NCBI GenBank assembly: GCA_964474375.1
Contig: CAYYSG010000001.1
Span: forward strand, 18,559-82,558
Reading direction: 5' to 3'
Origin: an uncultured Candidatus Saccharibacteria bacterium
Lineage (GTDB): Bacteria; Patescibacteriota; Minisyncoccia; Phycocordibacterales; UBA9973
DNA length: 64,000 nucleotides
The notes below the pieces were generated by a model that saw only the letters and a program-made list of their open reading frames with translations, was not told the origin of the DNA and did no database searches. Below, piece after piece: positions 2,668-24,252 of the stretch; positions within the stretch are counted from its first letter, which is position 1, and each line of letters opens with the position of its first letter. Made by a program: the position numbers and the translations under genes.

Positions 2668-2840
2668 ATATTATTTATGTTTAAAATCTTATTAGTTCTA
2701 TTAAGCCTGTGGATTATGGATAACTCTTTATTATTGATGTATATAAAGGTTTTAAAAATATTCTTTTACACAATCAATCTTGTTAGTAAGGGTATATTAA
2801 TTTTCATTTGTATTATTTATTGACTTATCCACATTTTTTC
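2668..2840. promoter_or_regulatory. Candidate oriC: AT-rich dnaA-dnaN spacer with DnaA boxes
   Basis: Perfect DnaA box TTATCCACA at 2825..2833. Near-consensus boxes tgtggatta (2708..2716) and tatggataa (2715..2723). AT-rich tracts at 2670..2700 and 2725..2820. Confidence 0.6.
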
Positions 2841-5831: not shown

Positions 5832-6317
5832 ATGGTCAAAACTAATGCTGAAGCACAAGAATTTGTTAAAAACCTGCTAAACACCATAGATGCTAGCTAC
5901 GATAGCATCGAAACAGTGTTTGATGAGGATAGCGGTCTTACTACTATTAGTGTTAAATCAAAAGATGGACGGCTGCTTATCGGTAAAGACGGAGAAACCC
6001 TAAATGCACTATCGACTTTACTCCATAGATATTTAGAATCTGGACTAAAGGAAAATGAATCCCCTATTTCTATATCACTCGACGTTAACGATTTTCAAAA
6101 AAAGCATATTGAAGATATAAAAACCAAAGCTCATATGATGGCTGAACGTGCTAAATTCTTCAAATCTAGTATCGAGCTTGATCCAATGAATGGGTACGAG
6201 CGCAGAATCATTCATACATTTCTTGAGAAAGATAAAAATATTTTAACTGACTCGACAGGAGAAGGTAAAAACAGAAGAATTGTTATAACTTACACAGAAG
6301 ACAAAACCGCTATATAA
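5832..6317 (+). CDS. khpB: KhpB/Jag RNA-binding protein (Jag_N, KH, R3H)
   Basis: C-terminal R3H motif GYERRIIHTFL, and its position after yidC. Confidence 0.8.
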   Translation: MVKTNAEAQEFVKNLLNTIDASYDSIETVFDEDSGLTTISVKSKDGRLLIGKDGETLNALSTLLHRYLESGLKENESPISISLDVNDFQKKHIEDIKTKAHMMAERAKFFKSSIELDPMNGYERRIIHTFLEKDKNILTDSTGEGKNRRIVITYTEDKTAI

Positions 6318-6325
6318 TAGCGGTT

Positions 6326-8654: not shown

Positions 8655-8696
8655 AAAATTATTATAACATAGAGATGTCGTAATAATTAGTGTTAA

Positions 8697-9824
8697 TTAT
8701 TTGTCTTGCAAGACACAGGCATCGTATAGATTCTTACGGTTTCTTGATTCGGTTTTTGCAAAGTCACTAGCTGGTTTACAGCTACCTCCGCCATATGCTC
8801 GAAATGTATTTTCTATATCACCCTTACATTTTTCAAAATTATATTGCAGTAGCTCTGCTCCAGCTTTTATGGCTTTGGTTGCATCGTACATATCTTTTGG
8901 ACAGACCGTGGTTTTTGTTTTTGCTGTTAGTCTGCATCTAGGTTTGCCATCTTCTGGAAAAAATGTAAATTGCATAATCCCTACCCCATGAGAAAATCTC
9001 CAGTCTAGTCCTAAATCATCACGACTTGGATTACTGGCGGTGAATATACCGCCCGTTCCATGGTCATCATTTAAAAAACTAGAGTTAGTTCCTAATAGGT
9101 TATTGTTTGGGTTAAATGTAACGCCTTTGTATGTTTTACCTGATGCAATGAATTGCCTTCTGGCTGGTACGCTTTTAGGAATAGGTGCATTTTCATCGTG
9201 CCCTATTACGCTAGGGTTACCTCGGGATTCACGGAGAGCCACCACCTGCAACATGCAGTGATGTATACCATAAGATGGAGCAATGGATTTAATTTGGTTA
9301 TAATAAGCAGTCCTAGCGAATGTCGTTGTTACCTCTCTTTCTAGTCTGTATTGGCTGGCTGGGTTCCATTCGGACCATGTATTTTCTTCTATTTTGTTTC
9401 CTCCTATTCTTATCTTCACTAAATCAGGATTAATAGTATAAAGTATCAAATAAGCACAAAACATGAGTATAAGTCCTGCTATTGCTGTAGTTATTTTACT
9501 TCTACTATCACTTTTCTTCCATACGGTATCTGACCCCATATACTGCACTCCATAAACCATGATCATGACTACAGTAATAGCACCTGCCATAGCTATAGCT
9601 AGCCTTATTATAAAGTTTACAAAGTCAGAGAAGCCATTAGGGCTGACATCTTGCACTTCTTTTATATTACCTATTTCGTTTATTAGTTTGTATGACCCAG
9701 GCTTAAAATTTGCATTGTTTGTGTTTGTGGTGGCTTTGGGTAGGTTATCCGATTTTACTATTGTTGGGTAAACAAATCCTGTGGCAAAAATCAGAACCAG
9801 TATAAAAAGTGTTTTCTTTAACAT
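8697..9824 (-). CDS. Fusion protein: VirB2/TrbC-pilin-like two-helix module plus lytic-transglycosylase-like (VirB1-like) domain
   Basis: N-terminal ~130 aa are nearly identical to those of 6326..7414. C-terminal domain has LRESRGNP ... GVGIMQFT ... RAYGGG, resembling the SLT motifs ES / GLMQ / AYNxG but with a long insertion. Confidence 0.45.
   Translation of the reverse strand: MLKKTLFILVLIFATGFVYPTIVKSDNLPKATTNTNNANFKPGSYKLINEIGNIKEVQDVSPNGFSDFVNFIIRLAIAMAGAITVVMIMVYGVQYMGSDTVWKKSDSRSKITTAIAGLILMFCAYLILYTINPDLVKIRIGGNKIEENTWSEWNPASQYRLEREVTTTFARTAYYNQIKSIAPSYGIHHCMLQVVALRESRGNPSVIGHDENAPIPKSVPARRQFIASGKTYKGVTFNPNNNLLGTNSSFLNDDHGTGGIFTASNPSRDDLGLDWRFSHGVGIMQFTFFPEDGKPRCRLTAKTKTTVCPKDMYDATKAIKAGAELLQYNFEKCKGDIENTFRAYGGGSCKPASDFAKTESRNRKNLYDACVLQDK
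9403..9635 (-). repeat. 233-bp direct repeat copy B
   Basis: Identical to 6891..7123. Lies inside 8697..9824. The flanks are only ~85 percent similar. Confidence 0.85.
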
Positions 9825-9827
9825 AAG

Positions 9828-10775
9828 TTAAAAATTAAGCTCCAATGCAGATTTGAATTCTTGGTATAGTGATCGAGGATTATCGTAATTTAGATTCAGG
9901 CGAACAACTCCACTGTCATCGGGCCGAATAAACGAAATCAGTTCTGGAATTTTTTGGTTATTTACATCTTCCCCACTAAGGTTCCAGACAATATTTGGAT
10001 TCAGTGTTTTATTTATACCCAAAGGAACACCAAAAACTGAAATAGTATTGTCATACCCAGCAACTTCATTTTTTATAGTGGTCCCTAGATTAAGTCCAAC
10101 CAAAGGACTGTATTCGTAGAATAATATTTTGTTTCTAGTAAAAGGTATACTAATAGAAGAAGTTTTGGTTTCAGAATTGGGTTTTATTACAGATACTGTT
10201 ATGTTTTCGGATCTTTCTATTTCTGTGTTTTTAAAATCAACAAAATTATTAGCACTGCTAGATTTCGTTTGGAGTGATTTGCCATTTCTTGCCCAAGAAT
10301 ATGAAACTTGTCCCCCACTAGGGTTCAGGACAGCTACGCGCAAATCATTTTCTCTTATTGGTATACGCTTACCCATGTAAAAAGGAATACTTTTACTATT
10401 CATTGCTTCCCAGATTAAGTCATAAGACATAGATGAAAAAGTTATATTTTTAGTAACCTTAGACCCACCAACTAGTGTTATTTCAGCATCAATGTTATTT
10501 TGTGCTCCTGGAGTATTACTTGATTCTATTGTAAATTCTTTTTCACCATAGCCAGATTTAGTCACACTGCCGTATGACCATTTAATATAAGCTAAATCTA
10601 AGTTTGTTTCGTAGCTTGTTAGTGTTGCTGTTACCTCCTCGCCTTCTCTTGGATCTACTGGATTAATACTGATGGATATATTAGGTTCAGATTCAAAAGT
10701 ACCCTGCGCCAGAGCACTGCCAGTTATAATAAATATAAATAATGCTATACCTAACAGGTATTTTTTCATATACAT
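9828..10775 (-). CDS. Secreted hypothetical protein within the T4SS-like cluster
   Basis: Signal peptide MYMKKYLLGIALFIFIITGSALAQ. No recognisable motifs. Confidence 0.5.
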   Translation of the reverse strand: MYMKKYLLGIALFIFIITGSALAQGTFESEPNISISINPVDPREGEEVTATLTSYETNLDLAYIKWSYGSVTKSGYGEKEFTIESSNTPGAQNNIDAEITLVGGSKVTKNITFSSMSYDLIWEAMNSKSIPFYMGKRIPIRENDLRVAVLNPSGGQVSYSWARNGKSLQTKSSSANNFVDFKNTEIERSENITVSVIKPNSETKTSSISIPFTRNKILFYEYSPLVGLNLGTTIKNEVAGYDNTISVFGVPLGINKTLNPNIVWNLSGEDVNNQKIPELISFIRPDDSGVVRLNLNYDNPRSLYQEFKSALELNF

Positions 10776-10786
10776 ATTATAGCATA

Positions 10787-12649
10787 CTAGTTTTGCTGTG
10801 CTTTATTTTTTTCAGCTTGAATAGCCAGAACTTGAGCTGGGTCAGATGTGATTATTTGTTCCTCTGTATAAGACGAAACTATTTTGATGGCTACGTGTTT
10901 TAGTCCTGCGAAAAATATCCCTTCCCCTACGTTGGCTTCTAGTAGTGTGTATTTTTCCGCATCGGTTAGATTAAATGCATCTTTTAGGACATCAATAGTC
11001 GTTGGGGACTGTTTTAGAAGCAGTTGCATTGAAGAGTTAGTTAAAATAGGTCTACCATATGGTGATTTTAGGAAGTCCTCCACGTCTTGTGTAATTGTAG
11101 CTAATCCAAGGTAATATTTACGTCCACGTTTTGCAATACTGTATAGGAAACTAGCTGTGTCTTCGTTTTTCATCATCCACCAAGCTTCATCCACTACCAT
11201 TAGTCTCTTTTTTAGATTCTTACGGATTTCATTCCATATGAAATGAGTAATTATATACATTGCTACAGGTTTTAATTCATCTTCCATATCACGTATTGAA
11301 AACACAACGAACTTCCGGTTTATGTCGACGTTACTTGGTTTGTTTAAGAATCCTGACCATGAGCCGGTTGTGAACTTTTCTAGCTTTGTAAGTACTGAAG
11401 AAGTTCCGTCCATACCAGCTAACACAACTGCAAAGTCGGACAATAGTGGTGGTTCAATAGTACTAAAGTCTGAATCAACGGTAATGTCCTTTAGGGCATA
11501 AGTCTCGGTGATTGCACGGTCGATAATAGCGTCTTCTTCGGGAGTTAGCCCACCCAGCATTACGCGAAATAGCCCCACTAGATTGATTGTATTTTGGCGG
11601 AGTACGTCTGCATTTGTTTCGTCTTTACTTGGGATCGGTAAATCAAAAGGATTTATATGGTGGTCAGATGATAGTGATACATTAAAATATCGCCCCCCTA
11701 CTGCGTCGGACAGGTATTCGTATTCTTTTTCCGGGTCGATAACTATAACATCAGTATCGAACATGAGTGAACGCAGAATTTCTAGTTTGGTTGCGAAAGA
11801 TTTACCAGAACCTGATTTTGCAAATGTTACAGAGTTATAGTTTTCCAATGAAAATCGGTCAAAAATAATAAGTGAATTATTATGCTGATTGATTCCATAT
11901 AAAATTCCTTTGTTGCCTGTTAGGTCAAACGAAACAAAAGGAAAAGTACTGGACAATGGTTCTGTGTTCATTTTTTGCATTACACGCAAATTGTCTTTTG
12001 CCATCGGGATGCTGGACAGGAATGCCGTGTCTTGCTGAAAAGTCGCTGGTTTGATGAATATCATTTGTGAATCCAGCTGACCTTTTATTTCGTTCTCGGC
12101 CTTGAATAGATCGGATTCATTTTCGGCATATATGTTGATATATAGTCCTACTTCGAACATTTTTTCTTGTGCTTGCTGCAAAGAATCGCGCAGTTGCTCT
12201 AAATCTCTATATGCTGATTCTAACATTGGGTCACGAACCATACCCTTGCTCTCTCTTTCGGATATTTGACTTTGGACTTCAGCTACCTTTTTCTGGAATT
12301 GGGACATTATTTTACCAGTATCTACTGGGGTTATGTTTATGGAAATATCGAAAACCCTGTCCAAGTTTATTATAGGTGTTAGCCAGTTGTCAGTTAGTAT
12401 ACTAGGATATCCTACAATATAGAATGAACGTACTATCATGTCCCCTAGATTAAGAGCAGTAGGCATTATCTGCAGTGCTGATGGGGCTATAATGTCTTGT
12501 AGTTCGAGCTGAGCTGAACTAAAGATTTCTTCTGGTCTAACAGACAAAGAACCAAGAACACTAGATGATTCTTTTTTGTTTCCGCCACCAAATATTTTTG
12601 AAAATATAGACATATTATTGGTTACTTTGCTTAGGGATATGACCAGCAC
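10787..12649 (-). CDS. virB4: VirB4/TrbE/TraC-family conjugation-type ATPase, C-terminal ATPase portion
   Basis: Walker A FAKSGSGKSFATK. ..HHINPFDL, Walker B LMVVDEAWWMM, and RGRKYYLGLATITQ. Overlaps the upstream partner ORF by 35 nt. Confidence 0.7.
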   Translation of the reverse strand: MLVISLSKVTNNMSIFSKIFGGGNKKESSSVLGSLSVRPEEIFSSAQLELQDIIAPSALQIMPTALNLGDMIVRSFYIVGYPSILTDNWLTPIINLDRVFDISINITPVDTGKIMSQFQKKVAEVQSQISERESKGMVRDPMLESAYRDLEQLRDSLQQAQEKMFEVGLYINIYAENESDLFKAENEIKGQLDSQMIFIKPATFQQDTAFLSSIPMAKDNLRVMQKMNTEPLSSTFPFVSFDLTGNKGILYGINQHNNSLIIFDRFSLENYNSVTFAKSGSGKSFATKLEILRSLMFDTDVIVIDPEKEYEYLSDAVGGRYFNVSLSSDHHINPFDLPIPSKDETNADVLRQNTINLVGLFRVMLGGLTPEEDAIIDRAITETYALKDITVDSDFSTIEPPLLSDFAVVLAGMDGTSSVLTKLEKFTTGSWSGFLNKPSNVDINRKFVVFSIRDMEDELKPVAMYIITHFIWNEIRKNLKKRLMVVDEAWWMMKNEDTASFLYSIAKRGRKYYLGLATITQDVEDFLKSPYGRPILTNSSMQLLLKQSPTTIDVLKDAFNLTDAEKYTLLEANVGEGIFFAGLKHVAIKIVSSYTEEQIITSDPAQVLAIQAEKNKAQQN

Positions 12650-13262
12650 TGTCCCCTGGGTTAAATGTTTTGTAATAAAGCTCGATCAAGCCTTCGGTGT
12701 TTAAGGGTACTGACCGTACTCCACAGCGGCCCAGAGTTTGCATTACGATACCTAGTCTTTGTTCTAGCTGGTTTCTTTTTTCATTCCAGTCTACTTCTTC
12801 TTCGGATTCTATTTTTTTTAAGCCCCCAACAGACCCAAAAAATTTTGAGAAAAATCCCCCAGTACGTATTAATGACTGACTATATGGTACAACTATATAA
12901 AAATGTTTTGACATTATGTTTACCCTGCTAGTTAGTTCACGAATAAATTCGATATATTCTCTGGTTTGGAATTTGAGCAAAGGCTCGTCTATTTTGTCGA
13001 GTCTTTCTTCTAGTGTTAGTAGGTATGGTCTAATATCGAATTTTCTGGACTGGACGACTATTTGAGTATCAAAATCGAGCGAATTTAATAGTGATTGGAA
13101 TTGTAATATTATAGACTTTTGTTCGTCTTGTGAGCGCAAAGTAAAGTTAATAGCGGTACACAGTAGTACAGCTCTTAGTCCACCATCATTAAGTTCCACC
13201 ACCCCGTCACGGATGTGTTTTATCGGTACAAATGACTGACTGCTTGGTGCTTTGATTGACAT
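12615..13262 (-). CDS. VirB4-family N-terminal domain, encoded separately in a different frame
   Basis: PIKHIRDGVVELNDGGLRAVLLCTAINFTLRSQDEQKSII resembles the VirB4 N-terminal region. Together the two ORFs total 835 aa, close to a typical VirB4 (~800 aa). Confidence 0.5.
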   Translation of the reverse strand: MSIKAPSSQSFVPIKHIRDGVVELNDGGLRAVLLCTAINFTLRSQDEQKSIILQFQSLLNSLDFDTQIVVQSRKFDIRPYLLTLEERLDKIDEPLLKFQTREYIEFIRELTSRVNIMSKHFYIVVPYSQSLIRTGGFFSKFFGSVGGLKKIESEEEVDWNEKRNQLEQRLGIVMQTLGRCGVRSVPLNTEGLIELYYKTFNPGDSAGHIPKQSNQ

Positions 13263-13263
13263 A

Positions 13264-13692
13264 TTATTTTACTGATTGACCGCTAGATTGGTCTCGGTCC
13301 ATTACGTCTAGACTCCATGCCAATGCTTCTATCTTACCACGGTCTAGGTTTTTCGGTGTAGTTAGGACAGGCTTTTTTGTGGCTATTCCTTTGTTATCCA
13401 TGTCTTTTTTGTGTTCAGGTCTTTGCCAGACATACATACGGTTTTTTGTGTAGTGTGTTAAAAATGCTTGGAACATTAGAATAGCTGGACGAGAATTCGG
13501 CTTCCAGAATGAAAGACTAATAGCTAAGAATAAAAATAAAGCTATAAGTATAAAACCAAAAGTAAAACCCAGATATGTATATGTTACATAAGCCAGGCCA
13601 ACTCCCCCACCTAGATAAATAAATTGCTTAAAAGTCAAAGGCCCAATGACTTTGTCTTCTATGTCTAAAAATCTTGGCATTTGGAATTGCAT
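13264..13692 (-). CDS. VirB3/PrgI-like small membrane protein
   Basis: 142 aa. IEDKVIGPLTFKQFIYLGGGVGLAYVTY then a TM helix, matching the VirB3/PrgI-type pattern (..GLT.rQ...), and located immediately upstream of virB4. Confidence 0.45.
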   Translation of the reverse strand: MQFQMPRFLDIEDKVIGPLTFKQFIYLGGGVGLAYVTYTYLGFTFGFILIALFLFLAISLSFWKPNSRPAILMFQAFLTHYTKNRMYVWQRPEHKKDMDNKGIATKKPVLTTPKNLDRGKIEALAWSLDVMDRDQSSGQSVK

Positions 13693-13733
13693 ACTAATAT
13701 AAGTATATCATAAGAAAATCCCAGAATATATTA

Positions 13734-14405
13734 TTATTCTGGGATTTCGCGGTATAGATCATTTTTCCTGTCACCTGTGGTTACTTTGGGTAAACTAGTT
13801 TCTATTTTGGTGCGGTCTAGTACTTGGTTTTCGTTCTTACTTTTTAGTATATCTTCCCAGGAATCTGATTTTAGGGCAGGTATGGAATTGCTATTCATCT
13901 CTGCTACTTTTTCATGGCTTAACATGCCACTAGGTCTAATGTCGCTGGTTACTCTTGAAACTGGTGCTGGGGCTACCCCTTCAGGTCTTGGAACATCTTG
14001 CATTTCGATGTAGTCGGATAGCTCTTTCTCAATCATGTCGTCGTTTTTCCAGTTGTTCTCTAGTACTGCGACTCTTTCTTTGGTTAGAATATTGGCAAAG
14101 ATATAGTCATGTATACCACCACGGACAGAACTGTTTACATTTGGCAATGCCTGGGTTATTTCATCTTTAACTTCACTTGGTCTAATGAAACCCAGTAATG
14201 TCATTGTAGTTATGTATTCTATCTCACTAACATATTCAGGTGCTAAACTGTAATTTTTAACCATATTTAGAAAGTCATTTGCATAACTTTGACCTAGAAC
14301 ATAGTTCCGTAATTCCGGCTGAATATTTTTAAGCCTATCCATTATTTGAGAAACTTCTTCTTGGGATTCATTAGGTATTAAGTTGATTTTATTATTTTCA
14401 TCCAT
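13734..14405 (-). CDS. Hypothetical protein, T4SS-like cluster
   Basis: 223-aa ORF with no recognisable motifs, gene-dense context, same strand as the cluster. Confidence 0.4.
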   Translation of the reverse strand: MDENNKINLIPNESQEEVSQIMDRLKNIQPELRNYVLGQSYANDFLNMVKNYSLAPEYVSEIEYITTMTLLGFIRPSEVKDEITQALPNVNSSVRGGIHDYIFANILTKERVAVLENNWKNDDMIEKELSDYIEMQDVPRPEGVAPAPVSRVTSDIRPSGMLSHEKVAEMNSNSIPALKSDSWEDILKSKNENQVLDRTKIETSLPKVTTGDRKNDLYREIPE

Positions 14406-14408
14406 AAA

Positions 14409-17400
14409 TTATGCTTTAGGTGGTTGGTATTTGTCAGTTGTGTCGACCTTTGTGTCTTTGTCTTGCCAGCTTCTACCATAGTTTTCATAGAATTTTCTGT
14501 CATACTCTGCCATTCTTACTAGCCCTGTAGCTATTGCTGTTGGTGCTGCTACCCAGCCGAATGGAGCACCTAGTACTGATCCTTTTGCTACGTCGGTATG
14601 TAAGAATGAATCATTGAGTACTGCACCTAATTTGCTTCTTGTTCCTGACGGGCTACTTTTTAGTTGATATGTCATGTTTTCTATATCACGAGCTGCTTCG
14701 GCTACATCTTTCAGAGCCTTGTCTTTTGCTTCACCTTCCATGGAATCTATATCGATTGAATTATAGACTGCCTCGTAAATTCTATTTTTAGCATGTTTAT
14801 TGAGAATCTCGGTGTCTTTTTTATACTTTTTAATGATCTCTTTCTTTTTGTCTTCGTCGGCTCCTGCCCATTCTTTGTCAGTTTTTGCTTTGTTTTCAAC
14901 TTCATTCATTATTTCCATAATGTCAGACCTTTTTGCCATTTTCTCGTCGGTCTCTGCTTCTTCTAGGTCTTTTCCAATTTTTTCTTTATATACGTCAAGA
15001 CCAGTTTTACGTTGGAATATTTTACCAGATTTTTCTCTTTGGAATTGCTTATATCTATCTGCTCTGTCAGTTTTAACTTTTTCCATTGCTTCTTCTGCAC
15101 CTTTTATTCCGATTACATGCATAGCTTTACCTGTTTTTTCATCTACGTATGTATAGCCATCACCTTTTAAGGCATTTAGCTTGTCTTTCTCTATTTTAAT
15201 TTCTTTTCTAATTTCTTTTTCTGCGTTTCCTAGTTTTGTGGCTTCTTTGTTTGCGTCTGTTTGGCCGTCTTCGTGTTTCCTTATTTCTTCTTTTAAGGCG
15301 TTCTTATCTTCTTCCAGTTTAGCTTTTTGACCTTCAAGTAAGACTTTTTTAGCAGTATCTGTCTCAGCGTCTATTTCTTTTTGTTTTTCTTTAATAAGAT
15401 TTTCTTGTTCGTTGACTTTTCTTGTTTTTGTTGATATTTCAGCTGCGTGGTCTCTGGCTACTTGTTGGTAAGAACGCATTTCAGAGAATTTTTCATCAGC
15501 ACGTTCTTTTAGGTCATTAACTATGTCTTCTTGGTTATTTGCTGCACGTTCTGTTTTTTTCTTAACATCTTCCATTTTGTTGTACATTTCTTGGTCGAAC
15601 CCTAGAGAGTCTTCAAACTTTTTAATTCTCTCTGTTTTTCTTTGCATCTGTGCCATGTATCCCCCAGCAGTTGTAGCTGTTTGGAATTGTTTACCAAAGA
15701 AAGGTATATAGTTTGTACCAGCTTGCATATTAACCCCTGTGAATCCTGATACTGCGCTGGCAGCTTTGTTTTGACGTAAATCAAAGCTACCTTTACGTGT
15801 CATATCGAGTGCTCCTACTTTTAGTCTTGCCCATGTGTTGCCTTCGGCTGCTTTTGTCATTAGTTTTTCTCCTGCGGTACTTTGCATATAACGACTAGCT
15901 CTTTTACCTAGTGCATTTCTACCAGCCCAGGCTGCGCCACCTGTAGCTATTGCTGCACCAAATCCAGCTACGCCAGACGCTACTGCTACTAATTTATCCC
16001 CTGCTAGTTTAGCAATGCTCGAAGTCAGGCCTTCTGTCATAGATTTTATTAAATATAAGAATCCAATTATCAGCATAAAAGGTATGATCAAACTCATCCA
16101 CCATTCTATACCCACAACTCCGTCGCCAAATACCGCTTTAAAAGGATTGTTCTTTACAAATAGTACTAGTATCATCATTAAAACTAGGAATATTGGAGCC
16201 TTGAATGCATCTTTTAATAGTCCTTGCATCCATTCTTCAAAACCAACCATTTTTAGACCACTTCTTTGTCCTGATGATAACGACAATGAAAACACTGCTA
16301 AGGGTGAAAGTATAATTGCAAATATAAGCCCTATAATACGGTATATGAACTGCAAAGCTATTTTTAGGAATATCAGCATTGCTATGACGTTAAATATCAC
16401 ACCCATTAGGAGTATCATGAAGACCGTTCCTTTGTTTTCGTCTACTTTGAATGTAGCAGCGTTGTCATCAAGTCCATCTAAGATGATTTTTTGGGGGTCG
16501 TAACCTTCGGCGGCAGTAGATGAAAGACTAATAGCTTTACCATCTGCCCCGTCGGTACGACTAAACACGTTGTAGTATAGTTGGCGCGCAGTAATGTTCG
16601 ATATATCTATAACTATTGTTGTTAGCGGGAATGAAAAGTTAATAACCGTAGCCACTATCAGAGTGTTAACTATTAGTTGCTTAGTACCCTGCCCTATGTT
16701 TAAAACTAGTTTGAATGCTAAATATAGCAACATAAATATAAAGAACAAGTTACATACATCACGAATGAATCTCCAGCCGTCTTTTATATACTGTGCATTG
16801 TATGAATCTGGCTGGATACTATAAGCCAAAACAAAGTCCATGATGCTACCCGCTACACCCAGTAAGAATGCTGTTGGTACAAAAACCATATAGTAAAACC
16901 CAACAACAAGACATCCAGTAAACCAAGTGCCAATGTCTTTCGCATCACATTTAGGCATCCAAGCCGGACCACTACCAGCACTATTGCCTGAGCTTATAAG
17001 GACTGCCCCACCTCTGGATGTTTGTGTTATTTGATCTGGTATTGATACCGAAACAACAGGAGTATATCCATTGTCGTCAAACCAAGGGTCGTGTTCGTTA
17101 GCAAAAAGTCTAAAATAATAAGTTTTGTTTTTTTCAACTTGTAGTGGTTCTAGTCCAAAAACCATACCAGTTTTTGCATCGCTTATGATAGGTGAATCTA
17201 CTTTTTCACCGAATATATACGGGTTTAAGTTTATCTCTTTTACGTCATTACCTCCTACTTTTGGATCAGTGTTACTAGTTGAATATAAAAGATAAAATCC
17301 ATATCCACCCTCATTTGCTGTTCGGGTATCTATTTCTGGGTTATTAAAGCCTTTTGTAAAATTATCCCAGTCACCTCCTGGAATGTCTCCAGGAGATGCT

Positions 17401-18662
17401 TTGCGATTATTATCTACATCATTCCATGCAATAAAATCTGTACTATCTGGCTTGTCTATAAGCATAGCAATATCAATGTCTAAAACAGGCTGACTACCCG
17501 ACATTGCTGGTTCGAGTTTTTTAATTGAATAGTCTTCCATTACGTAATTTGCATTTGCAAATTTGTATTGAATATTTTGTTTAGTGCTTGTGTTTAACAA
17601 GGTCCATGTTACTTGAGTTCCAGAATTTGCATTTGGGTCAAAAGCCATTTGAGCTTTTGCGCTAGACCATTCTGTTGATAGCTGGTAGGATCCATCTGTT
17701 TTAGGTTCTGGGTCTGTTGTTTGTATCAATTCAGATCTAGACAATGTATACAGAGTTCGGTCGCTATTATCTTGAAAGTAATTTACTTTAAAACTCCCCT
17801 TTTTTTGTTTAGGTATGTCTGCACTCAAATGAAGGATGTTTTTATTTGTCTTACCTTCTACTTTTAATGTTCCAACCATATTCTGGGTTACATCAAAACT
17901 AGAATAGTCTTTTTCTCTAAATTGGCCCCATTCAACATCAAAACTATTACCAGTTCCTTTTTGTGCTTTTATAAAAACAACATGATCTTTTATGTTTTTA
18001 TAAATAGTTGTACCGATAACTGTATCAGCTAATTCTTCAACCGCATTTTTATCAGAAGTCTTTTCTGTCCGGATAGTCTTTACTCCTTGCCTGTCTTCTG
18101 TTGTATATGTAAATTTATAATGCCCCCACTCATCAAAACCACCATTATCCTCAATACATTTTTTAAAAAAAGTAGAAGGTATTGAAAATGTAAAATCTTG
18201 TTTTAAATACCCCCTTGCTTCGGTGTTCGCTAGATTTAGGCTGGCAATAGATGTTTTGTCGGGGCTTGTAAGACTAGGGTTAGATACGAGCGTTACATTA
18301 CTAGCAGAACAACCTGTTTCTATATCTCCTGGAACAAATCCATCTCTTATTTCGTATTCAATTTTATCAATAGAATTTATTCTATGGTTAGGGTCAGTAA
18401 AAGCTGAAACTTTTATATTAGTTCCATCAGTAATACCTGTGACAATAAGAAAAGCGTCTGCATTTTTAGCATCAACATATTCTCTTTTTTCTACTTTTGG
18501 TGTTTGTGCTGATACTGTATTAGCCCTGACACTGATTTTGTTGTCAGAAAAGTTTATTATGAAAGGTGAAAAAAGCTGGAAGATAACCAGAAAAATAGCT
18601 ATAAATCCAAAAGCTTTTTGCTTCATACTGTATGTATAAATTGTAACATATTTTTTAAACAT
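14409..18662 (-). CDS. Giant polytopic membrane protein, VirB6/TrbL-like core with ~560-aa N-terminal extracytoplasmic region and Gly-rich/coiled-coil Lys-Glu-rich C-terminal tail
   Basis: 1417 aa. N-terminal signal/TM, then a multi-TM block (~570-870, e.g. LFFIFMLLYLAFKLVLNIG, FMILLMGVIFNVIAMLIFL, WWMSLIIPFMLIIGFLYLI). Followed by a Gly-rich segment (GVAGFGAAIATGGAAWAG) and a long K/E-rich coiled-coil. Confidence 0.4.
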   Translation of the reverse strand: MFKKYVTIYTYSMKQKAFGFIAIFLVIFQLFSPFIINFSDNKISVRANTVSAQTPKVEKREYVDAKNADAFLIVTGITDGTNIKVSAFTDPNHRINSIDKIEYEIRDGFVPGDIETGCSASNVTLVSNPSLTSPDKTSIASLNLANTEARGYLKQDFTFSIPSTFFKKCIEDNGGFDEWGHYKFTYTTEDRQGVKTIRTEKTSDKNAVEELADTVIGTTIYKNIKDHVVFIKAQKGTGNSFDVEWGQFREKDYSSFDVTQNMVGTLKVEGKTNKNILHLSADIPKQKKGSFKVNYFQDNSDRTLYTLSRSELIQTTDPEPKTDGSYQLSTEWSSAKAQMAFDPNANSGTQVTWTLLNTSTKQNIQYKFANANYVMEDYSIKKLEPAMSGSQPVLDIDIAMLIDKPDSTDFIAWNDVDNNRKASPGDIPGGDWDNFTKGFNNPEIDTRTANEGGYGFYLLYSTSNTDPKVGGNDVKEINLNPYIFGEKVDSPIISDAKTGMVFGLEPLQVEKNKTYYFRLFANEHDPWFDDNGYTPVVSVSIPDQITQTSRGGAVLISSGNSAGSGPAWMPKCDAKDIGTWFTGCLVVGFYYMVFVPTAFLLGVAGSIMDFVLAYSIQPDSYNAQYIKDGWRFIRDVCNLFFIFMLLYLAFKLVLNIGQGTKQLIVNTLIVATVINFSFPLTTIVIDISNITARQLYYNVFSRTDGADGKAISLSSTAAEGYDPQKIILDGLDDNAATFKVDENKGTVFMILLMGVIFNVIAMLIFLKIALQFIYRIIGLIFAIILSPLAVFSLSLSSGQRSGLKMVGFEEWMQGLLKDAFKAPIFLVLMMILVLFVKNNPFKAVFGDGVVGIEWWMSLIIPFMLIIGFLYLIKSMTEGLTSSIAKLAGDKLVAVASGVAGFGAAIATGGAAWAGRNALGKRASRYMQSTAGEKLMTKAAEGNTWARLKVGALDMTRKGSFDLRQNKAASAVSGFTGVNMQAGTNYIPFFGKQFQTATTAGGYMAQMQRKTERIKKFEDSLGFDQEMYNKMEDVKKKTERAANNQEDIVNDLKERADEKFSEMRSYQQVARDHAAEISTKTRKVNEQENLIKEKQKEIDAETDTAKKVLLEGQKAKLEEDKNALKEEIRKHEDGQTDANKEATKLGNAEKEIRKEIKIEKDKLNALKGDGYTYVDEKTGKAMHVIGIKGAEEAMEKVKTDRADRYKQFQREKSGKIFQRKTGLDVYKEKIGKDLEEAETDEKMAKRSDIMEIMNEVENKAKTDKEWAGADEDKKKEIIKKYKKDTEILNKHAKNRIYEAVYNSIDIDSMEGEAKDKALKDVAEAARDIENMTYQLKSSPSGTRSKLGAVLNDSFLHTDVAKGSVLGAPFGWVAAPTAIATGLVRMAEYDRKFYENYGRSWQDKDTKVDTTDKYQPPKA

Positions 18663-18690: not shown

Positions 18691-19545
18691 TTATTTACAA
18701 ATAGTTTCTTTGGCTTTGTGTATTATACATTCTATCGTGCCGTTTTGTATCGTGGTTATGGTTTTTATGTTGTACTTGTTTAGCACATTTAGTACTTCGA
18801 TGTGTGGGTGACCATAGCGGTTATTCTCCCCTGCGGAAATCAGTGCGTATTTGGGCGTGGTTAGCATGATTAGTCTTTCGCCGGTCGATGTGTTGGATCC
18901 ATGGTGTCCAACTTTTAATATGTCTATGTTGTTTAAGTATTTGCCATACTTTTTCAAGACCTCATCTTCTACTTCTTTTGGGGCGTCACCTGTTAGCAGT
19001 ATCTTTTTGCCTTCGTATTCTATCAGTCCTACCATTGAACCCGAATTCCTTTCCCAGTCAGCTACATTGCCTTCGGGCCAAAGAACTGTATAAGTCACGC
19101 CATGATTTTTGTCCAGAACCACTACATCCCCGCTTTTAGGCTTATAAATGTTGATTTTTTGCTCTTGGGCTAGTTTTTCTATTTCAGTATAGGCGCTGAT
19201 GGTGTGATTGGTGCCGGGGCTTAGTATTTGCCCTATTTTGTATTTTTCCATTACAAAAGGAAATCCTCCTATATGGTCCAAATCTGGGTTGGAAACCTCG
19301 ATGATGTCTATTGTCTCACCGGTATTTATATATTTGCCTAGCTCACTTAGCACGCTCCTGTCGCGGCCTGAATCTATCAGCATTTTCCTGCCGCCGGGGG
19401 TTTCTATTAGTGTTGCGTCGCCCTGGCCTATGTTTAGCATATATAGGCTCAAGCTATTTTCTTCAGGTTTTTGCCTAGTTAGTAGAAAAATAAGTATAAA
19501 AAAGACTAAAATTGTAATTATCCAGTAAATATTCCGTCTTTTCAT
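18691..19545 (-). CDS. ComEC C-terminal metallo-beta-lactamase-fold domain protein, encoded as a separate gene with its own TM anchor
   Basis: LNIGQGDATLIE, DHIGG, and KVGHHGSNTSTG are motifs of the ComEC/Rec2 MBL domain. The ORF is open to 19605, and the start is more likely Met at 19545 (MKRRNIYWIITILVFF). Confidence 0.7.
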   Translation of the reverse strand: MKRRNIYWIITILVFFILIFLLTRQKPEENSLSLYMLNIGQGDATLIETPGGRKMLIDSGRDRSVLSELGKYINTGETIDIIEVSNPDLDHIGGFPFVMEKYKIGQILSPGTNHTISAYTEIEKLAQEQKINIYKPKSGDVVVLDKNHGVTYTVLWPEGNVADWERNSGSMVGLIEYEGKKILLTGDAPKEVEDEVLKKYGKYLNNIDILKVGHHGSNTSTGERLIMLTTPKYALISAGENNRYGHPHIEVLNVLNKYNIKTITTIQNGTIECIIHKAKETICK

Positions 19546-19578
19546 GTATAAATTATAACATTTTGCTATAATACTCCT

Positions 19579-20184
19579 ATGATAGAAAAATACACTGCAA
19601 AACAATATGATTTGCCAGAACTAACTGGTATTTCCAAAAAAAGTATAGAAGAACATATGAAACTATACGAAGGCTATGTTAAACACGCCAACCTAATAAA
19701 AGAAAAGCTAGAATCAATCCCCGCGGACGATGCCTATACTCGCACCGAACTCATGCGACGGTTTTCTTTCGAGTTCTGTGGTATGCGTAATCACGAGCTT
19801 TATTTTTGGTCTCTTGTTGGTGGGGCTAGTACTATTCCAAATGGTTCAAAGTTAGAATCAGACATCATTCGTGATTTTGGTAGCATAGATGATTTTTTTA
19901 TAAAATTAAAAGAAATAGCTTTGACTCGGTCCGTTGGTTGGGCAATGTTGTCCTACGATGTAACATTCGACCACTTGACTTTGTCTTGGGTGGATGAACA
20001 GCATATAGGGCAACTCATGAACGTGTTCCCTGTTTATGCTATCGATATGTGGGAACATGCTTATGTTTACGACTATCAGCCTAGTGGTAAAAAGAATTAT
20101 CTTGAAGACTATATCAAAAATACAAATTTCGAATCTTTATCTAACCGCTACGAAGTTTTTTGCAGTAGCTTAAAACCTTTGTAA
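19579..20184 (+). CDS. sodA: Fe/Mn superoxide dismutase family protein
   Basis: NHELYFWS and AIDMWEHAYVYDY match the SOD metal-ligand motifs NHxxFW and DxWEHAYY. The N-terminal HH..HH motif is partly degenerate. Confidence 0.7.
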   Translation: MIEKYTAKQYDLPELTGISKKSIEEHMKLYEGYVKHANLIKEKLESIPADDAYTRTELMRRFSFEFCGMRNHELYFWSLVGGASTIPNGSKLESDIIRDFGSIDDFFIKLKEIALTRSVGWAMLSYDVTFDHLTLSWVDEQHIGQLMNVFPVYAIDMWEHAYVYDYQPSGKKNYLEDYIKNTNFESLSNRYEVFCSSLKPL

Positions 20185-21455
20185 AATAAAAATACATAAA
20201 TAGTCAGTACAATAACCAAAGGAAAATTTTCCACATAGTAGGCAGACCAAGTTGTCTCGCCTATTTTGTTTATTATATATATCATCAGGTTTGAAATATT
20301 TTCCGTAACAAAAGCCGGAATGAATCTGAGGAATTCAGGTGTGATACCTAGCACAAATCCAAACAGCATTAACACTGGTATCATTGGAACTATTATAATG
20401 TTAGCTATAATTCCAAGTGACGAAATTATGCCTATAGAATAAGCAATATATGGCAAAGTCATAATGCTAGCTGAAATAGTGCTACTCAATGTTTCGGACA
20501 AAAATTTGCCAAATCTTTTTTTAACAAAATATCCAGCGACTGTGCCCTGGTATGCTATTAGTCCAAAAGTTGCCAGTACTGAAAGATGAAAACCCACATC
20601 ATAGCGTAAAGACAAAGGTGAAATCAGTATCAGCAAGGAGGTTGCTAAAAATAAAGCATACAGGTTATTGTATTCTAGCCCTCTGGCTCGTGCATAAATC
20701 AAGACGAGCGACATTATGCTGGCTCTGACTGCGCTACTGGCTCCGCCAGCTAATACCAAAAAAGCCAATATACCAAGCGACCCAAACAAACTACGAACCA
20801 GTATACTAAACGAAGACAGTATCTTCATAATAGTTTCACTAACTATGGTCATGTTGTATCCAGAAAGCGCAATTATATGGCTAGTGCTCGATCGTGACAA
20901 ATTCAGCCTAAATTCATTTGTCATGTCAGACTTCTCCCCTAATAATATCCCGCGTGTTAACGAAGCGCTATTATAACTAAGTGACGCATTTATTTTATTT
21001 GCAAAACCAGTGCGTATTTTAAAAAGAAAACTTTTTATTTTGTTGGCTTGGTTTATACCCAGTACTTCTATTGTGGGTTCGCGGACTATGCCATATATTT
21101 TAGATAGTTTTAAATAATTATCATAATCAAATGTTTTACCTGAGTCGGTAATAAAGTCTTTTGGTTTTTCTATTGTGCTAGTTATTTTTAGCTCATCGCC
21201 ATAATGGTATTCAGTATAAGGTTCAGTTACTATTAGTAACCTGCTGTTATCATTCACATTTATTTCGTTTATGGATTTTATTTTTATTCTGTATCTATTT
21301 GAACTAATTCTTTTTTCTGGGTAATCATCCACTACTCCTATTATTGTAAATTCTTCGTCACCAAAATTAATTTCAATTTCTTCTTTTACAAAACAAAAAT
21401 ACATTCCGTATATTATAGGTATTATGACTATAATAATTCGGAATGTATTTTTCAT
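20148..21455 (-). CDS. comEC: ComEC/Rec2 competence channel (membrane domain only)
   Basis: Polytopic protein whose region LAFLVLAGGASSAVRASIMSLVLIYARARG is typical of the ComEC competence domain, with a DUF4131-like N-terminal part. Confidence 0.7.
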   Translation of the reverse strand: MKNTFRIIIVIIPIIYGMYFCFVKEEIEINFGDEEFTIIGVVDDYPEKRISSNRYRIKIKSINEINVNDNSRLLIVTEPYTEYHYGDELKITSTIEKPKDFITDSGKTFDYDNYLKLSKIYGIVREPTIEVLGINQANKIKSFLFKIRTGFANKINASLSYNSASLTRGILLGEKSDMTNEFRLNLSRSSTSHIIALSGYNMTIVSETIMKILSSFSILVRSLFGSLGILAFLVLAGGASSAVRASIMSLVLIYARARGLEYNNLYALFLATSLLILISPLSLRYDVGFHLSVLATFGLIAYQGTVAGYFVKKRFGKFLSETLSSTISASIMTLPYIAYSIGIISSLGIIANIIIVPMIPVLMLFGFVLGITPEFLRFIPAFVTENISNLMIYIINKIGETTWSAYYVENFPLVIVLTIYVFLFYKGFKLLQKTS

Positions 21456-21979
21456 TATGTAATTTTCAAACCTCGTAATTCTTCAAAACCAGCTCTGTCC
21501 CCAGAATACAAATTCATGGATTCTTCTTTAGCTAAGGTCCGGGCTATATAATCCACTGCTTCGTTACCACCTATACCCATATGGCCAGGTACGTATTTTA
21601 AATCTATTTCATGCTTTTTTAATACTTCTTCATAAAGAATATCTATTTCCTGCCAGATTTCCTTGTTCAGTACTGGTTTTTTGGCTGCGGTTTTCCAGCC
21701 ATTCTTTTTCCAGTTTTTAATCCAGCTGGTAATACCATTTTTTACATATTCGGAATCCAGGTGTATTACGACTGTTTCTTTTTCTCTATTTTTTATTAGC
21801 CAGTCTAGTGATTTCAGGAATGCCATTAATTCCATTTGGTTATTTGTAGCATGTTCTTTGTGCTCACCATGCTCTTCTATCCAGTCTTTCTTTTTGTCCC
21901 AAACTAGGAAACCATATCCGGCTTTGCCAGGGTTACCTAGTGCACTACCGTCAGTATATATAACTATATTGTGAGTCAT
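21455..21979 (-). CDS. rnhA: Ribonuclease HI
   Basis: VIYTDGSALGNPGKAGYGFLV is the RNase H catalytic N-terminal signature. Confidence 0.85.
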   Translation of the reverse strand: MTHNIVIYTDGSALGNPGKAGYGFLVWDKKKDWIEEHGEHKEHATNNQMELMAFLKSLDWLIKNREKETVVIHLDSEYVKNGITSWIKNWKKNGWKTAAKKPVLNKEIWQEIDILYEEVLKKHEIDLKYVPGHMGIGGNEAVDYIARTLAKEESMNLYSGDRAGFEELRGLKIT

Positions 21980-21980
21980 T

Positions 21981-23720
21981 TTATTTTAAAGTTATAACGT
22001 CTTTTAATCGTACTCGCACGGTGCCCTGCCATAGCTTTGAATCCAGTGTGCCGATGATATGCACTGTCTGCCCTATTTGGGGGCTACCTAGGTCATCGAT
22101 ACTTTTATAAAATGCATAAGTACTAGCCGAAGCCCCCGCTGTGTCACGAAATGTTATTTCTATATGGGCTCCACCTGTTCCGAAATTTCGAATGTCCAGA
22201 ATGGTTGCATTCTTAAAAGCAAAAATGGGCTCTTCAAAGCCTTGTCCAAAAGGCGCTAGTTTGGTCAGTGCTCGATGTAAATTCACATGTAGTAGTGATA
22301 TCGGTAGGACGGCATCTATGTTTTTTTCTATTACAAAATTAGTATCAGTGTTTTCATCCTTTTGTTTTTGGCTGGCTTTTACCAGAGCATCTTCTATGTC
22401 GTAAATCCTGTCCGGGTTTACGGAAAATCCACCAGCTTCGAAATGTCCACCGAATTCTAATAGTACATCATTCTCAACATTACTCATTAGTTCATGCATG
22501 TTGGTTTTACCGTTACCGCGGCATGATCCTTTGTAGCAAATACTGTCTTCTTTTTCGCTACGTCCCCAAACAAATGCTGGTTTGTCGTAGAATTCTACAA
22601 TCTTAGAAGCAACTAGTCCCAACAGCCCTACTTTCCATGATGGGTCGCCTACTATGATGATGTCTTTTTCATCTTTGTTCCATTTGGCAATATCGCGACG
22701 CGCTTCTTTAACCATAGCGGCTACTAATTTCCTTCTTTCGTTTGACAGGCTTACTAGTTTGTCTGATGCAATTTTGGCAACATCAGGATCAGTTTCTATT
22801 AGTAGTTTGTATGCATCATAAGGACTACCCATGCGTGATGCTACATTTAGTTTCGGTGCCAACATAAAAGTTATGTCGTCTTGGGTTAGGTCTCGCATGT
22901 ATACGCGGGACGCTTTGGCTAGTGCCATTAGTCCAGGGCGGGTTCTGTTCCGCATTTCATTCATACCTTCTTTTACCAAAGCTTTGTTTTCCGGAGTTAG
23001 TTCGACCATGTCAGAGAGTGTTGCAAATGCTGCCATGTCGACAACGCTTCTTATAAAATTATTATTTAAATCATATTCATTTCCGTATTTTGTAACAAAT
23101 GCTCTAGCTAGTGTATACACTACACCTGCGCCACATAGTTCTTTGTTCGGGTATAGCCCTGCGCCTATTTTAGGGTGAACAATAGCCAACGCATCTGGCG
23201 TATTTTCCCCTATTGTGTGGTGGTCGGTTATTATTACATCCATTCCATAACTGTTAGCTAGCTGGGTTGACGCAATAGCTGTAATTCCCATATCAATAGT
23301 TATTACCAAAGAAGTATTTTGTTTTTTAAAATTTTCTATATGGTTTTCGGCTAGTCCGTAGCCTTCTACATTTCTGTCGGGTATGGATACAATATAGTTT
23401 TTGAATCCAATTTTGTTAAATAATGATGACAGTATCACTGCCCCAGGAATGCCGTCACAGTCGTAGTCGGCATGAACTGCTATTTTTTCATCTTTGTCTA
23501 TGGATTCTTTGATACGAGTAATGGCTTTGTCCATGTCATTTATTAAAAATGGGTCACCATGTTCTTCGTCTAGTGTGCCGGACAGGTGCCGACGAGCTGT
23601 TTCTATGTCTTTAATACCTCGATATCCTAGAATATCGGCTATCAAAGTACCGTATTTAAGGTCTAGTTCTTGGATTCTTTCACCATCTCTCTTTCTTAGT
23701 GTGTACTTCCCGTTTGGCAT
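21981..23720 (-). CDS. recJ: Single-stranded-DNA-specific exonuclease RecJ
   Basis: DHH family motifs HADYDCDG and VIITDHH, plus a DHHA1 region. 579 aa. Confidence 0.85.
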   Translation of the reverse strand: MPNGKYTLRKRDGERIQELDLKYGTLIADILGYRGIKDIETARRHLSGTLDEEHGDPFLINDMDKAITRIKESIDKDEKIAVHADYDCDGIPGAVILSSLFNKIGFKNYIVSIPDRNVEGYGLAENHIENFKKQNTSLVITIDMGITAIASTQLANSYGMDVIITDHHTIGENTPDALAIVHPKIGAGLYPNKELCGAGVVYTLARAFVTKYGNEYDLNNNFIRSVVDMAAFATLSDMVELTPENKALVKEGMNEMRNRTRPGLMALAKASRVYMRDLTQDDITFMLAPKLNVASRMGSPYDAYKLLIETDPDVAKIASDKLVSLSNERRKLVAAMVKEARRDIAKWNKDEKDIIIVGDPSWKVGLLGLVASKIVEFYDKPAFVWGRSEKEDSICYKGSCRGNGKTNMHELMSNVENDVLLEFGGHFEAGGFSVNPDRIYDIEDALVKASQKQKDENTDTNFVIEKNIDAVLPISLLHVNLHRALTKLAPFGQGFEEPIFAFKNATILDIRNFGTGGAHIEITFRDTAGASASTYAFYKSIDDLGSPQIGQTVHIIGTLDSKLWQGTVRVRLKDVITLK

Positions 23721-23868
23721 ATTTATGGATTATATCATATGCTTCGCTAAACTAATCTTTTTAGAAAGTCCTCGGGTCTCCTCGCCAGCAAAAAAGAAGG
23801 CTCGGCCAGACATTTATAAAAAGATTGTTTAGCTACGCTAGTCTTTCATATTTTGTTATAATGTATAT

Positions 23869-24252
23869 ATGAACTGTATTTTTTGCAAAATCATAGACGG
23901 CCAGATTCCGGCTTATAAAACATACGAGGACGACAAATGTATTGCTTTTTTAGATATAAAACCAGTAGCATTGGGTCACATGTTGTTAATTCCAAAAGAC
24001 CATTATGAATGGGTCCAGGATACTCCGGATGAGCTAGTCTCGCATTGTTTCCTGTCAGCTAAAAAGTTAGTATCAAAAATCAAGGAAAAACTTGGTGCGG
24101 ACTATGTTCAGCTGTCAGTTGTAGGTAAAGACGTTCCTCATTTTCATATTCATTTAATTCCCCGCCAATTATCCGACGGTCTCGAAGGCTGGGCTGGCAA
24201 AGATGTCGACAAAAAAGACTTTGAAGAAATAATCCAAAAACTAAATAATTAA
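23869..24252 (+). CDS. HIT family hydrolase
   Basis: CIFCKI...HFHIHLIP histidine triad. Confidence 0.9.
   Translation: MNCIFCKIIDGQIPAYKTYEDDKCIAFLDIKPVALGHMLLIPKDHYEWVQDTPDELVSHCFLSAKKLVSKIKEKLGADYVQLSVVGKDVPHFHIHLIPRQLSDGLEGWAGKDVDKKDFEEIIQKLNN

Follow-up and report, generated by a model that had tools for sequence, protein, structure and literature searches.

ComEC is the universal inner-membrane importer of DNA in natural transformation, and the CPR bacteria (candidate phyla radiation; also called Patescibacteria) are thought to depend on imported DNA. The locus studied here raises the question whether such an importer can be encoded by two separate genes. It lies in a stretch of 64,000 nt, referred to as the window, from an uncultured Candidatus Saccharibacteria bacterium (contig CAYYSG010000001.1 of assembly GCA_964474375.1, positions 18,559 to 82,558 of the forward strand; GTDB lineage Patescibacteriota; Minisyncoccia; Phycocordibacterales; UBA9973). 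A preliminary description of this sequence had noticed that the membrane channel and the metallo-beta-lactamase (MBL) domain of ComEC, normally parts of one polypeptide, are encoded about 600 bp apart, with a sodA-like superoxide dismutase (SOD) gene on the opposite strand between them. All coordinates given there for the channel and MBL genes hold (Table 1). The two ComEC parts are 602 bp apart, this distance being occupied by the plus-strand sod gene, and the last 37 nt of sod overlap the last 37 nt of the channel gene, exactly as described. We consider it likely that the locus encodes a naturally split, two-subunit ComEC.

The two proteins match different parts of full-length ComEC. The channel protein contains the Competence domain (PF03772, residues 170-429, 128.6 bits at a cut-off of 23), and its DUF4131 score of 27.5 bits is under the cut-off of 31.6. 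On the ComEC_Rec2 model TIGR00361 it covers positions 83-380 (43.1 bits), and the MBL protein covers positions 413-663 (151.7 bits, E 2e-44); the score of more than 190.05 bits that marks a single ComEC polypeptide is reached by neither of these separate proteins. Likewise, channel residues 82-370 align with residues 142-429 and MBL residues 8-271 with residues 513-782 of the full-length ComEC of Neomoorella carbonis, termed 30bt (801 aa). The two proteins thus tile full-length ComEC without overlap and are complementary parts of it, as the preliminary description had supposed. In fused ComECs of other phyla, the Patescibacteria channel profile ends about 12 residues before the MBL profile starts (at 497 and 509, respectively, in locus L051).

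The AlphaFold2 (AF2) model of the channel protein (predicted local distance difference test score, pLDDT, 85.7) shows a single helix at the N-terminus, followed by a beta-barrel (residues 35-133) and a helical membrane domain. In a fold search against the PDB the barrel matched the ComEC OB domain 9iew with probability 1.00 and a target TM-score of 0.53. Judged from this model, the extracytoplasmic OB fold is kept in the channel subunit despite the Pfam score below cut-off. The same search returned OB-fold matches only, full-length ComEC entries not being matched in that library. A count of transmembrane (TM) helices from the five hydropathy peaks of the channel was too crude and was not used. 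None of the best 120 channel homologues carries an MBL domain. Two Patescibacteria homologues of 706-707 aa (P0161 and P0164) were considered as possible fusions and rejected; in neither did the C-terminal extension of about 220 aa after the Competence domain match a Pfam family or resemble the MBL profile.

The MBL protein (PF00753, 61.3 bits) groups with the nuclease domains of ComEC rather than with another MBL family. In a sequence comparison with the PDB, ComEC proteins take the first six ranks, and the pneumococcal phosphorylcholine esterase comes next. The AF2 model of the MBL protein (pLDDT 90.1), which consists of a helix at residues 3-23 and an MBL fold, matches the ComEC beta-lactamase-like domain 9ic4 best (E 7e-22, TM-score 0.80/0.85, root mean square deviation 2.7 A), with Pce/CbpE as the next-best structural match. 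A grouping with other MBL families, named in the preliminary description as the case that would speak against its reading, was therefore not found. The best 120 homologues of the MBL protein are all stand-alone proteins of 232-313 aa, and those with names come from Nomurabacteria, Pacebacteria and Vogelbacteria.

The residues of the metal site (D43, D88, D90, H91, N167, D187, H214/H215 and H246) are invariant in 20 MBL homologues. From the aligned sequences, the ComEC ligand set (motif II H-x-D-x-D-H, motif III Asn, motif IV Asp, motif V His) appears essentially intact. Mutation of the two motif II aspartates, which are invariant in the homologues studied here, abolishes nuclease activity and impairs transformation (PMC8579336).

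A separate N-terminal TM segment of the MBL protein, already proposed in the preliminary description, is borne out by the AF2 helix and by a hydropathy peak at residues 5-23. The helix aligns with residues 513-531 of 30bt, directly before the soluble domain, and probably corresponds to TM11 of ComEC. It is preceded by the basic N-terminus MKRRN, which fits an N-in/C-out anchor that would place the nuclease outside the cell, as in fused ComEC. Since the helix aligns just before the nuclease domain, the break would lie in the cytoplasmic loop between TM10 and TM11, ahead of the last, peripheral helix. In the cryo-electron microscopy structure of 30bt, which comprises 11 TM helices, TM4-9 line the channel; TM10 and TM11 lie at the periphery with a short cytoplasmic helix between them, and TM11 is invisible in one protomer. 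The nuclease domain of 30bt follows a flexible linker and begins at residue 532; a small, conserved contact to the OB fold sets its position (PMC13539106). By analogy with this structure, the split point appears structurally benign.

To describe the distribution of the split, the MBL profile was run against one genome per species (GTDB representatives), and the 80 loci returned were annotated with custom profiles. Among the 32 loci with Patescibacteria titles, 25 were informative and seven had insufficient upstream DNA to judge. In 22 of the 25 informative loci the channel gene precedes the MBL gene on the same strand. In 15 of these sod is interposed, and in seven, which include Kerfeldbacteria and Magasanikbacteria, the MBL gene follows within 1 kb without sod. 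The remaining three comprise one locus with sod and MBL and no channel gene within 6 kb, and two with MBL alone at which at least 6.9 kb of upstream DNA was available. No fused gene was found in the Patescibacteria-titled loci. The split thus recurs in related genomes. That the two domains normally form one polypeptide, as had been stated, is confirmed by 17 loci outside this group with a fused open reading frame (ORF) of 589-1017 aa, the shortest being cut by a contig end. Two Gemmatimonadales loci (L046 and L074) carry a probably frameshifted fused gene, and many loci in Clostridia, other Firmicutes and some archaea have a stand-alone ComEC-like MBL gene and no same-strand channel gene.

In four loci with adjacent split genes, the stop of one gene and the start of the next overlap by 4-31 nt, and every MBL protein of adjacent pairs has a Met start of its own, followed by basic residues and a TM helix. 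Where the halves are linked, 15 of the 22 loci have kept sod between them, with MBL proteins just 30-41% identical to that of the window. On contigs from other samples the genes are arranged as HIT (opposite strand), recJ, rnhA, channel, sod (opposite strand) and MBL, with MBL identities from 69% to 39%. Because the same arrangement is found in independent assemblies from other samples and species, neither chance nor assembly error accounts for it; the split is old and fixed. The HIT-family hydrolase gene, which is divergent from recJ, occupies the same position in 15 other loci including distant Patescibacteria, and the conserved block extends to HIT / recJ-rnhA-channel / sod / MBL. The simplest history would be that the ComEC gene was split first, in an ancestor shared by much of the Patescibacteria, and that sod later lodged between the halves in Paceibacteria-type lineages and then stayed there.

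In the window, recJ, rnhA, the channel gene, the MBL gene and a gene for a 1417-aa membrane protein form a series of five closely spaced minus-strand genes. The ORF coordinates confirm that recJ and rnhA lie directly upstream of the channel gene on the same strand: rnhA begins 1 nt past the recJ stop, and its own stop overlaps the channel start. All three RecJ domains are present, and the protein scores above the TIGR00644 cut-off of 396.9 bits. The recJ-rnhA-channel genes are a conserved, tightly packed unit. For the MBL gene, the ATG at 19545 is backed by the homologue alignment and by gene calls in other assemblies; a longer version starting with TTG at 19605 had no such support and was rejected.

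The start codons of sod and the MBL gene are 33 bp apart, and an extended -10 box is located 6 nt before each ATG, the two hexamers being 9 bp apart. Thus, both mRNAs are probably leaderless, and the MBL gene has a predicted promoter of its own in the spacer. No Shine-Dalgarno sequence in register was found before either ATG. The promoter-like signal was followed in 26 non-identical loci, in which MBL start codons had been set by profile position and hence independently of the motif. A -10-like hexamer stands exactly 6 nt before the MBL ATG in 10 of them (background 0.024 per position; binomial P about 2e-10, an approximate value given the phylogenetic kinship of the loci) and 6-9 nt before it in 15. 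The sod hexamer lies either 6-8 nt or 26-33 nt upstream across loci, often with the TG extension. In the window, recJ and the HIT gene carry the same signature, and it is absent before rnhA, the channel gene and the 1417-aa gene. Overall, a -10-like hexamer, often as TGnTATAAT, is present 5-9 nt before the first ATG in 21 of the 61 window ORFs of at least 100 codons, and the spacing peaks sharply at 6 nt. This pattern suggests that leaderless transcription is widespread in the first genes of transcription units of this organism. In the literature searched, no explicit description of leaderless mRNAs in Patescibacteria was found.

The genes probably fall into three transcription units: recJ-rnhA-channel, sod by itself, and MBL, the last of them in the window probably joined by genes downstream. 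For recJ-rnhA-channel, the DNA-uptake and processing operon suggested in the preliminary description probably holds. The MBL gene has a conserved signal of its own that resembles a promoter and is unlikely to be no more than the final gene of this operon. Terminator-like hairpins were found neither at the channel/sod overlap (fold z-scores 0.09 and 0.02) nor in the sod-MBL spacer or after the MBL gene (-1.07 and -0.64). In the absence of a hairpin at the overlap or after MBL, convergent transcripts may overlap and read-through into the MBL gene may occur. It is possible that MBL is transcribed as the last gene of the recJ-rnhA-channel operon across sod in antisense, but given the conserved -10 box 6 nt before its ATG such read-through is no longer needed.

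The gene in the gap is, judged from its sequence, a genuine Fe/Mn superoxide dismutase, in agreement with the preliminary description. It scores 64.8 bits for Sod_Fe_C (cut-off 20.9) and 21.1 bits for Sod_Fe_N (cut-off 27). The weak N-terminal score had suggested that the N-domain is degenerate or that the His26 ligand is lost. Both were rejected: residues 12-194 align end to end with the best PDB match, the Aquifex Fe-SOD 1coj (E 4e-22), which gives both the alpha-hairpin N-domain and the alpha/beta C-domain. All four metal ligands (His26, His72, Asp156 and His160) and the gateway Tyr33 are present and invariant in 25 of 25 syntenic homologues; they correspond to His26, His81, Asp167, His171 and Tyr34 in Escherichia coli MnSOD numbering. 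The position of the second-sphere His30 is deleted. On direct reading of the translation, made with no predictor, no signal-peptide-like hydrophobic segment was seen at the N-terminus. SOD genes are common in Patescibacteria from oxic groundwater (PMC8672522). In the Patescibacteria locus L047, an ORF with an RNase III-like signature (ERLEFFGD; 6132..6860, plus strand) lies between channel and MBL genes in the usual place of sod.

A model of a two-subunit ComEC can be drawn from homology, from the conservation of residues and gene order, and from the published structure. The channel subunit would end in the cytoplasm, and the second gene would provide the TM11 equivalent, a signal anchor of N-in/C-out orientation, and after it the Mn-type MBL nuclease on the extracytoplasmic side. 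Channel and anchored nuclease would assemble in the membrane, where the nuclease may dock on the OB fold at the channel mouth as in fused ComEC. It would then degrade the non-translocated strand while the other strand enters. RecJ, an exonuclease specific for single-stranded DNA, and RNase HI, both probably co-transcribed with the channel, could process the imported strand in the cytoplasm, either for recombination or for nucleotide salvage. The nuclease subunit would be expressed from its own promoter, possibly with additional read-through from recJ-rnhA-channel.

Several points weigh against this model. That the channel and MBL proteins bind each other is something we infer. The first residue of motif II is Asn instead of His (Asn86, codon 19288..19290), giving NPDLDH in the clade of the window, and other Paceibacteria-type MBL homologues keep HPDADH; the possibly inactive domain of Streptococcus pneumoniae ComEC has the same Asn change plus two further substitutions. 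The channel gene is not linked to MBL in L017, L030 and L033. In three Paceibacterales genomes (PMX_810_sub, PMX.50 and PMX.108) the halves are also unlinked, although the presence of both halves there, each assigned to KEGG K02238, speaks for the model; furthermore, in one metatranscriptome the channel gene was expressed on day 14 and the value for the MBL gene was 0 (PMC10936435 supplement). A promoter-like signal of its own and the lack of linkage also fit an independent role of the MBL gene. Regarding the order of events, the neighbour-joining tree of MBL domains gave a bootstrap of 5/100 for the largest Patescibacteria clade. With the tree this poorly supported, gene fission, as opposed to acquisition of a stand-alone MBL gene, rests on co-linearity and TM11 homology. 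The position of the Patescibacteria sequences in it, outside the stand-alone Clostridia/Firmicutes cluster, is only suggestive. Finally, comEC was dispensable for growth in the one Patescibacterium tested genetically; one Patescibacterium is genetically tractable via comEC-dependent natural transformation, and the sole genetic evidence on DNA uptake by comEC in the phylum comes from a Saccharibacterium (PMC10633639).

The main rival to a two-subunit ComEC is that the MBL protein derives from ComEC and acts alone. It would then be a membrane-anchored surface nuclease or phosphodiesterase serving the scavenging of nucleotides from extracellular DNA or acting on wall polymers like Pce, and the channel would have no dedicated nuclease. 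Besides the separate promoter-like signal and the unlinked loci and genomes listed above, this reading draws on the peripheral, weakly attached TM11 even of fused ComEC, on the structural similarity to Pce/CbpE and on the stand-alone ComEC-like MBLs without a nearby channel that are common in Clostridia, other Firmicutes and some archaea. In the genus of the window, the MBL gene moreover lies 28 nt upstream of a type IV secretion cluster. However, 22 of the 25 informative loci place the MBL gene just downstream of the channel gene in the order of the domains, the overlaps of 4-31 nt in sod-less lineages are typical of co-translated partners, and the ComEC-specific ligands (Asp in motif II, Asn in motif III) are kept. 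The ComEC nuclease domain also is a poor DNA binder without the OB fold (PMC12455585). We therefore regard a solo nuclease as rather unlikely.

Another explanation concerns the position of sod, which may be regulatory in the manner of a non-contiguous operon or excludon. Convergent overlap and competition of RNA polymerases at the 33-bp spacer would lead to antagonistic expression of SOD and ComEC/nuclease, or both sides would be under joint Mn/Fe- or oxidant-sensing control. The Fe/Mn class of SOD uses Mn or Fe, as does the ComEC nuclease domain. Retention of sod in 15 of the 22 linked loci at low MBL identities and the persistence of the sod-MBL pair in L017 without a nearby channel gene are in line with regulation, and so is the overlap free of terminator-like hairpins. 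Coding 3'-ends overlap by 9-73 nt in eight species-level loci including the window (L001): the overlap is again 37 nt in L003 and L005/L006, and overlaps in this range occur in L014, L020, L025, L026 and L027. Two more loci show exact abutment, and the sod-MBL spacer is 16-91 bp in most loci. Against this, the channel-sod gap is 45-553 bp in nine other loci and 1839 bp in one, and sod and MBL are 159-1696 bp apart in five, so neither the overlap nor the tight spacer is obligatory. Seven lineages have no sod at this place, no shared operator-like motif was identified, and gene order in small, gene-dense genomes may persist without function; the layout itself is known from DNA. The deep conservation of the sod position favours the regulatory idea, and the gapped loci and the seven sod-less lineages speak against its being essential; taken together, a regulatory arrangement appears unlikely.

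That the split results from a misassembly, a frameshift error or a decaying pseudogene, for which one could cite the single metagenome-derived sequence of the window and the probably frameshifted fused genes of the two Gemmatimonadales loci, is practically excluded, since more than 20 independent assemblies of different samples and species show the same arrangement, the gap holds a complete, conserved 201-aa gene, both halves have intact frames and invariant functional residues, and every MBL gene comes with a start codon and a membrane anchor of its own; the assembly error considered in the preliminary description can thus be set aside and the split is real.

Table 1. Position of genes, predicted signals and neighbouring features in the window
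Feature	Position	Strand	Remarks
HIT-family hydrolase gene	23869..24252	+	
-10 hexamer of the HIT gene	23857..23862	+	
-10 hexamer of recJ	23729..23734	-	TGaTATAAT, 8 nt upstream of ATG
recJ, ssDNA-specific 5'-3' exonuclease	21981..23720	-	first gene of unit; TIGR00644 455.3 bits; DHH, DHHA1, RecJ_OB
rnhA (RNase HI)	21455..21979	-	PF00075 131.1 bits
Putative ComEC channel subunit, 435 aa	20148..21455	-	N-terminal TM helix, OB fold ~35-133, Competence domain 170-429
Convergent 3' coding overlap of channel gene and sod	20148..20184		37 nt
sod, Fe/Mn superoxide dismutase, 201 aa	19579..20184	+	
-10 hexamer of sod	19567..19572	+	TGcTATAAT, 6 nt before ATG
Divergent sod/MBL spacer	19546..19578		33 bp; two back-to-back extended -10 boxes
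-10 hexamer of MBL gene	19552..19557	-	TGtTATAAT, 6 nt before ATG
Putative ComEC nuclease subunit, 284 aa	18691..19545	-	TM anchor and MBL domain
N-terminal membrane helix of MBL subunit	19477..19539	-	residues 3-23, probable TM11 equivalent
Type IV secretion cluster	6326..18662	-	Patescibacteria-type
1417-aa membrane protein (in cluster)	14409..18662	-	polytopic, no Pfam match
223-aa protein (in cluster)			
PrgI/VirB3 (in cluster)	13264..13692		
TraC-like (in cluster)	12615..13262		
VirB4 ATPase (in cluster)	10787..12649		
SLT transglycosylase (in cluster)	8697..9824		

The type IV secretion system (T4SS) cluster follows the MBL gene after a gap of 28 nt. A functional link between the two was considered and rejected, the adjacency being found only in the closest relatives (L003, L005/L006 and L007/L008). 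In a Nomurabacteria relative (L007 6937..8233, L008 1725..3021), a 196-aa gene and an AbiEii toxin-like gene lie between MBL and the large T4SS-associated protein. Outside the CPR, Tepidibacter sp. Z1-5 (L048) has a channel-only ComEC ORF of 425 aa (2412..3686, minus strand) 3.3 kb from a ComEC-type MBL gene (6998..7873, plus strand). This locus and the stand-alone MBLs in Clostridia, other Firmicutes and archaea indicate that split or trans-acting ComEC nucleases may occur beyond the CPR as well.

Compared with full-length ComEC/Rec2 (Bacillus subtilis; Neomoorella carbonis 30bt; TIGR00361), the split form shares the OB fold, the channel and TM11 plus Mn-type MBL in the same order, the ComEC-specific metal ligands and the predicted topology. 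It differs in comprising two polypeptides with the probable break in the TM10-TM11 loop, in having one TM helix before the OB fold and Asn instead of His as the first residue of motif II, and in the predicted promoter of the nuclease gene and the sod gene in between. ComECs without an MBL domain (Helicobacter pylori; CPR fam000603, Meheust et al. 2019) have a similar channel architecture, and the one TM helix at the N-terminus of the channel protein agrees with the prediction for H. pylori; unlike in these, the missing domain is encoded here about 600 bp downstream as a membrane-anchored protein, and directly adjacent in many relatives.

Streptococcus pneumoniae, which combines ComEC with EndA, likewise has a separate, membrane-bound, strand-degrading nuclease beside the channel, and its ComEC shares the replacement of His by Asn in motif II. 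In contrast, EndA is unrelated to MBL enzymes and pneumococcal ComEC keeps its fused, possibly inactive MBL domain, whereas the putative trans nuclease described here is ComEC's own domain. In the non-contiguous operons or excludons of Staphylococcus and Listeria, genes of an operon are separated by an oppositely transcribed gene with overlapping mRNA. Our locus resembles them in that related same-strand genes are interrupted by an opposite-strand gene with overlapping coding ends and no visible terminators. It differs in that the downstream MBL gene has its own promoter-like signal, so that read-through is not required, and in that the arrangement is known here from the DNA layout.

It has been published that CPR bacteria lack the ComEC-MBL fusion (Meheust et al. 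2019, PMC6744442). The nuclease domain is missing from about half of all ComECs, and the fate of the second strand in organisms with such ComECs was called an open question (Silale et al. 2021, PMC8579336); later structural and biochemical papers also state that such variants exist. In the literature searched, coverage of which was incomplete, we found no description of a separately encoded, membrane-anchored ComEC nuclease beside its channel or of a sod gene between the two. The separately encoded partner and the conserved sod insertion thus appear to be undescribed. New are the organisation in two subunits, the place at which ComEC is split and the sod gene conserved between the halves, each product being an ordinary member of its family.

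The nuclease domain reported missing from CPR ComEC is not absent here or in many relatives, where a gene of its own encodes it as a predicted membrane-anchored protein. If a two-subunit ComEC is indeed encoded, the gene would have been cut where cryo-electron microscopy shows the weakest covalent dependence, namely at the peripheral TM11 and the flexible linker. The locus would then represent a natural experiment indicating that the ComEC nuclease may work in trans, and the natural split suggests a design for split-ComEC experiments in model organisms. It also points to an annotation problem, as the separate nucleases are labelled only 'MBL fold metallo-hydrolase'. With its predicted leaderless divergent promoters, the conserved sod insertion offers a small system in which the conservation of gene order in reduced genomes can be tested. 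A more speculative and, in our view, improbable extension is that many MBL-less ComECs have a trans-encoded nuclease subunit and that, in Paceibacteria-type lineages, sod serves as an antisense and divergent-promoter switch tying the nuclease to oxidative or metal status. If true, a trans nuclease would partly answer how the non-transforming strand is degraded in organisms with an MBL-less ComEC.

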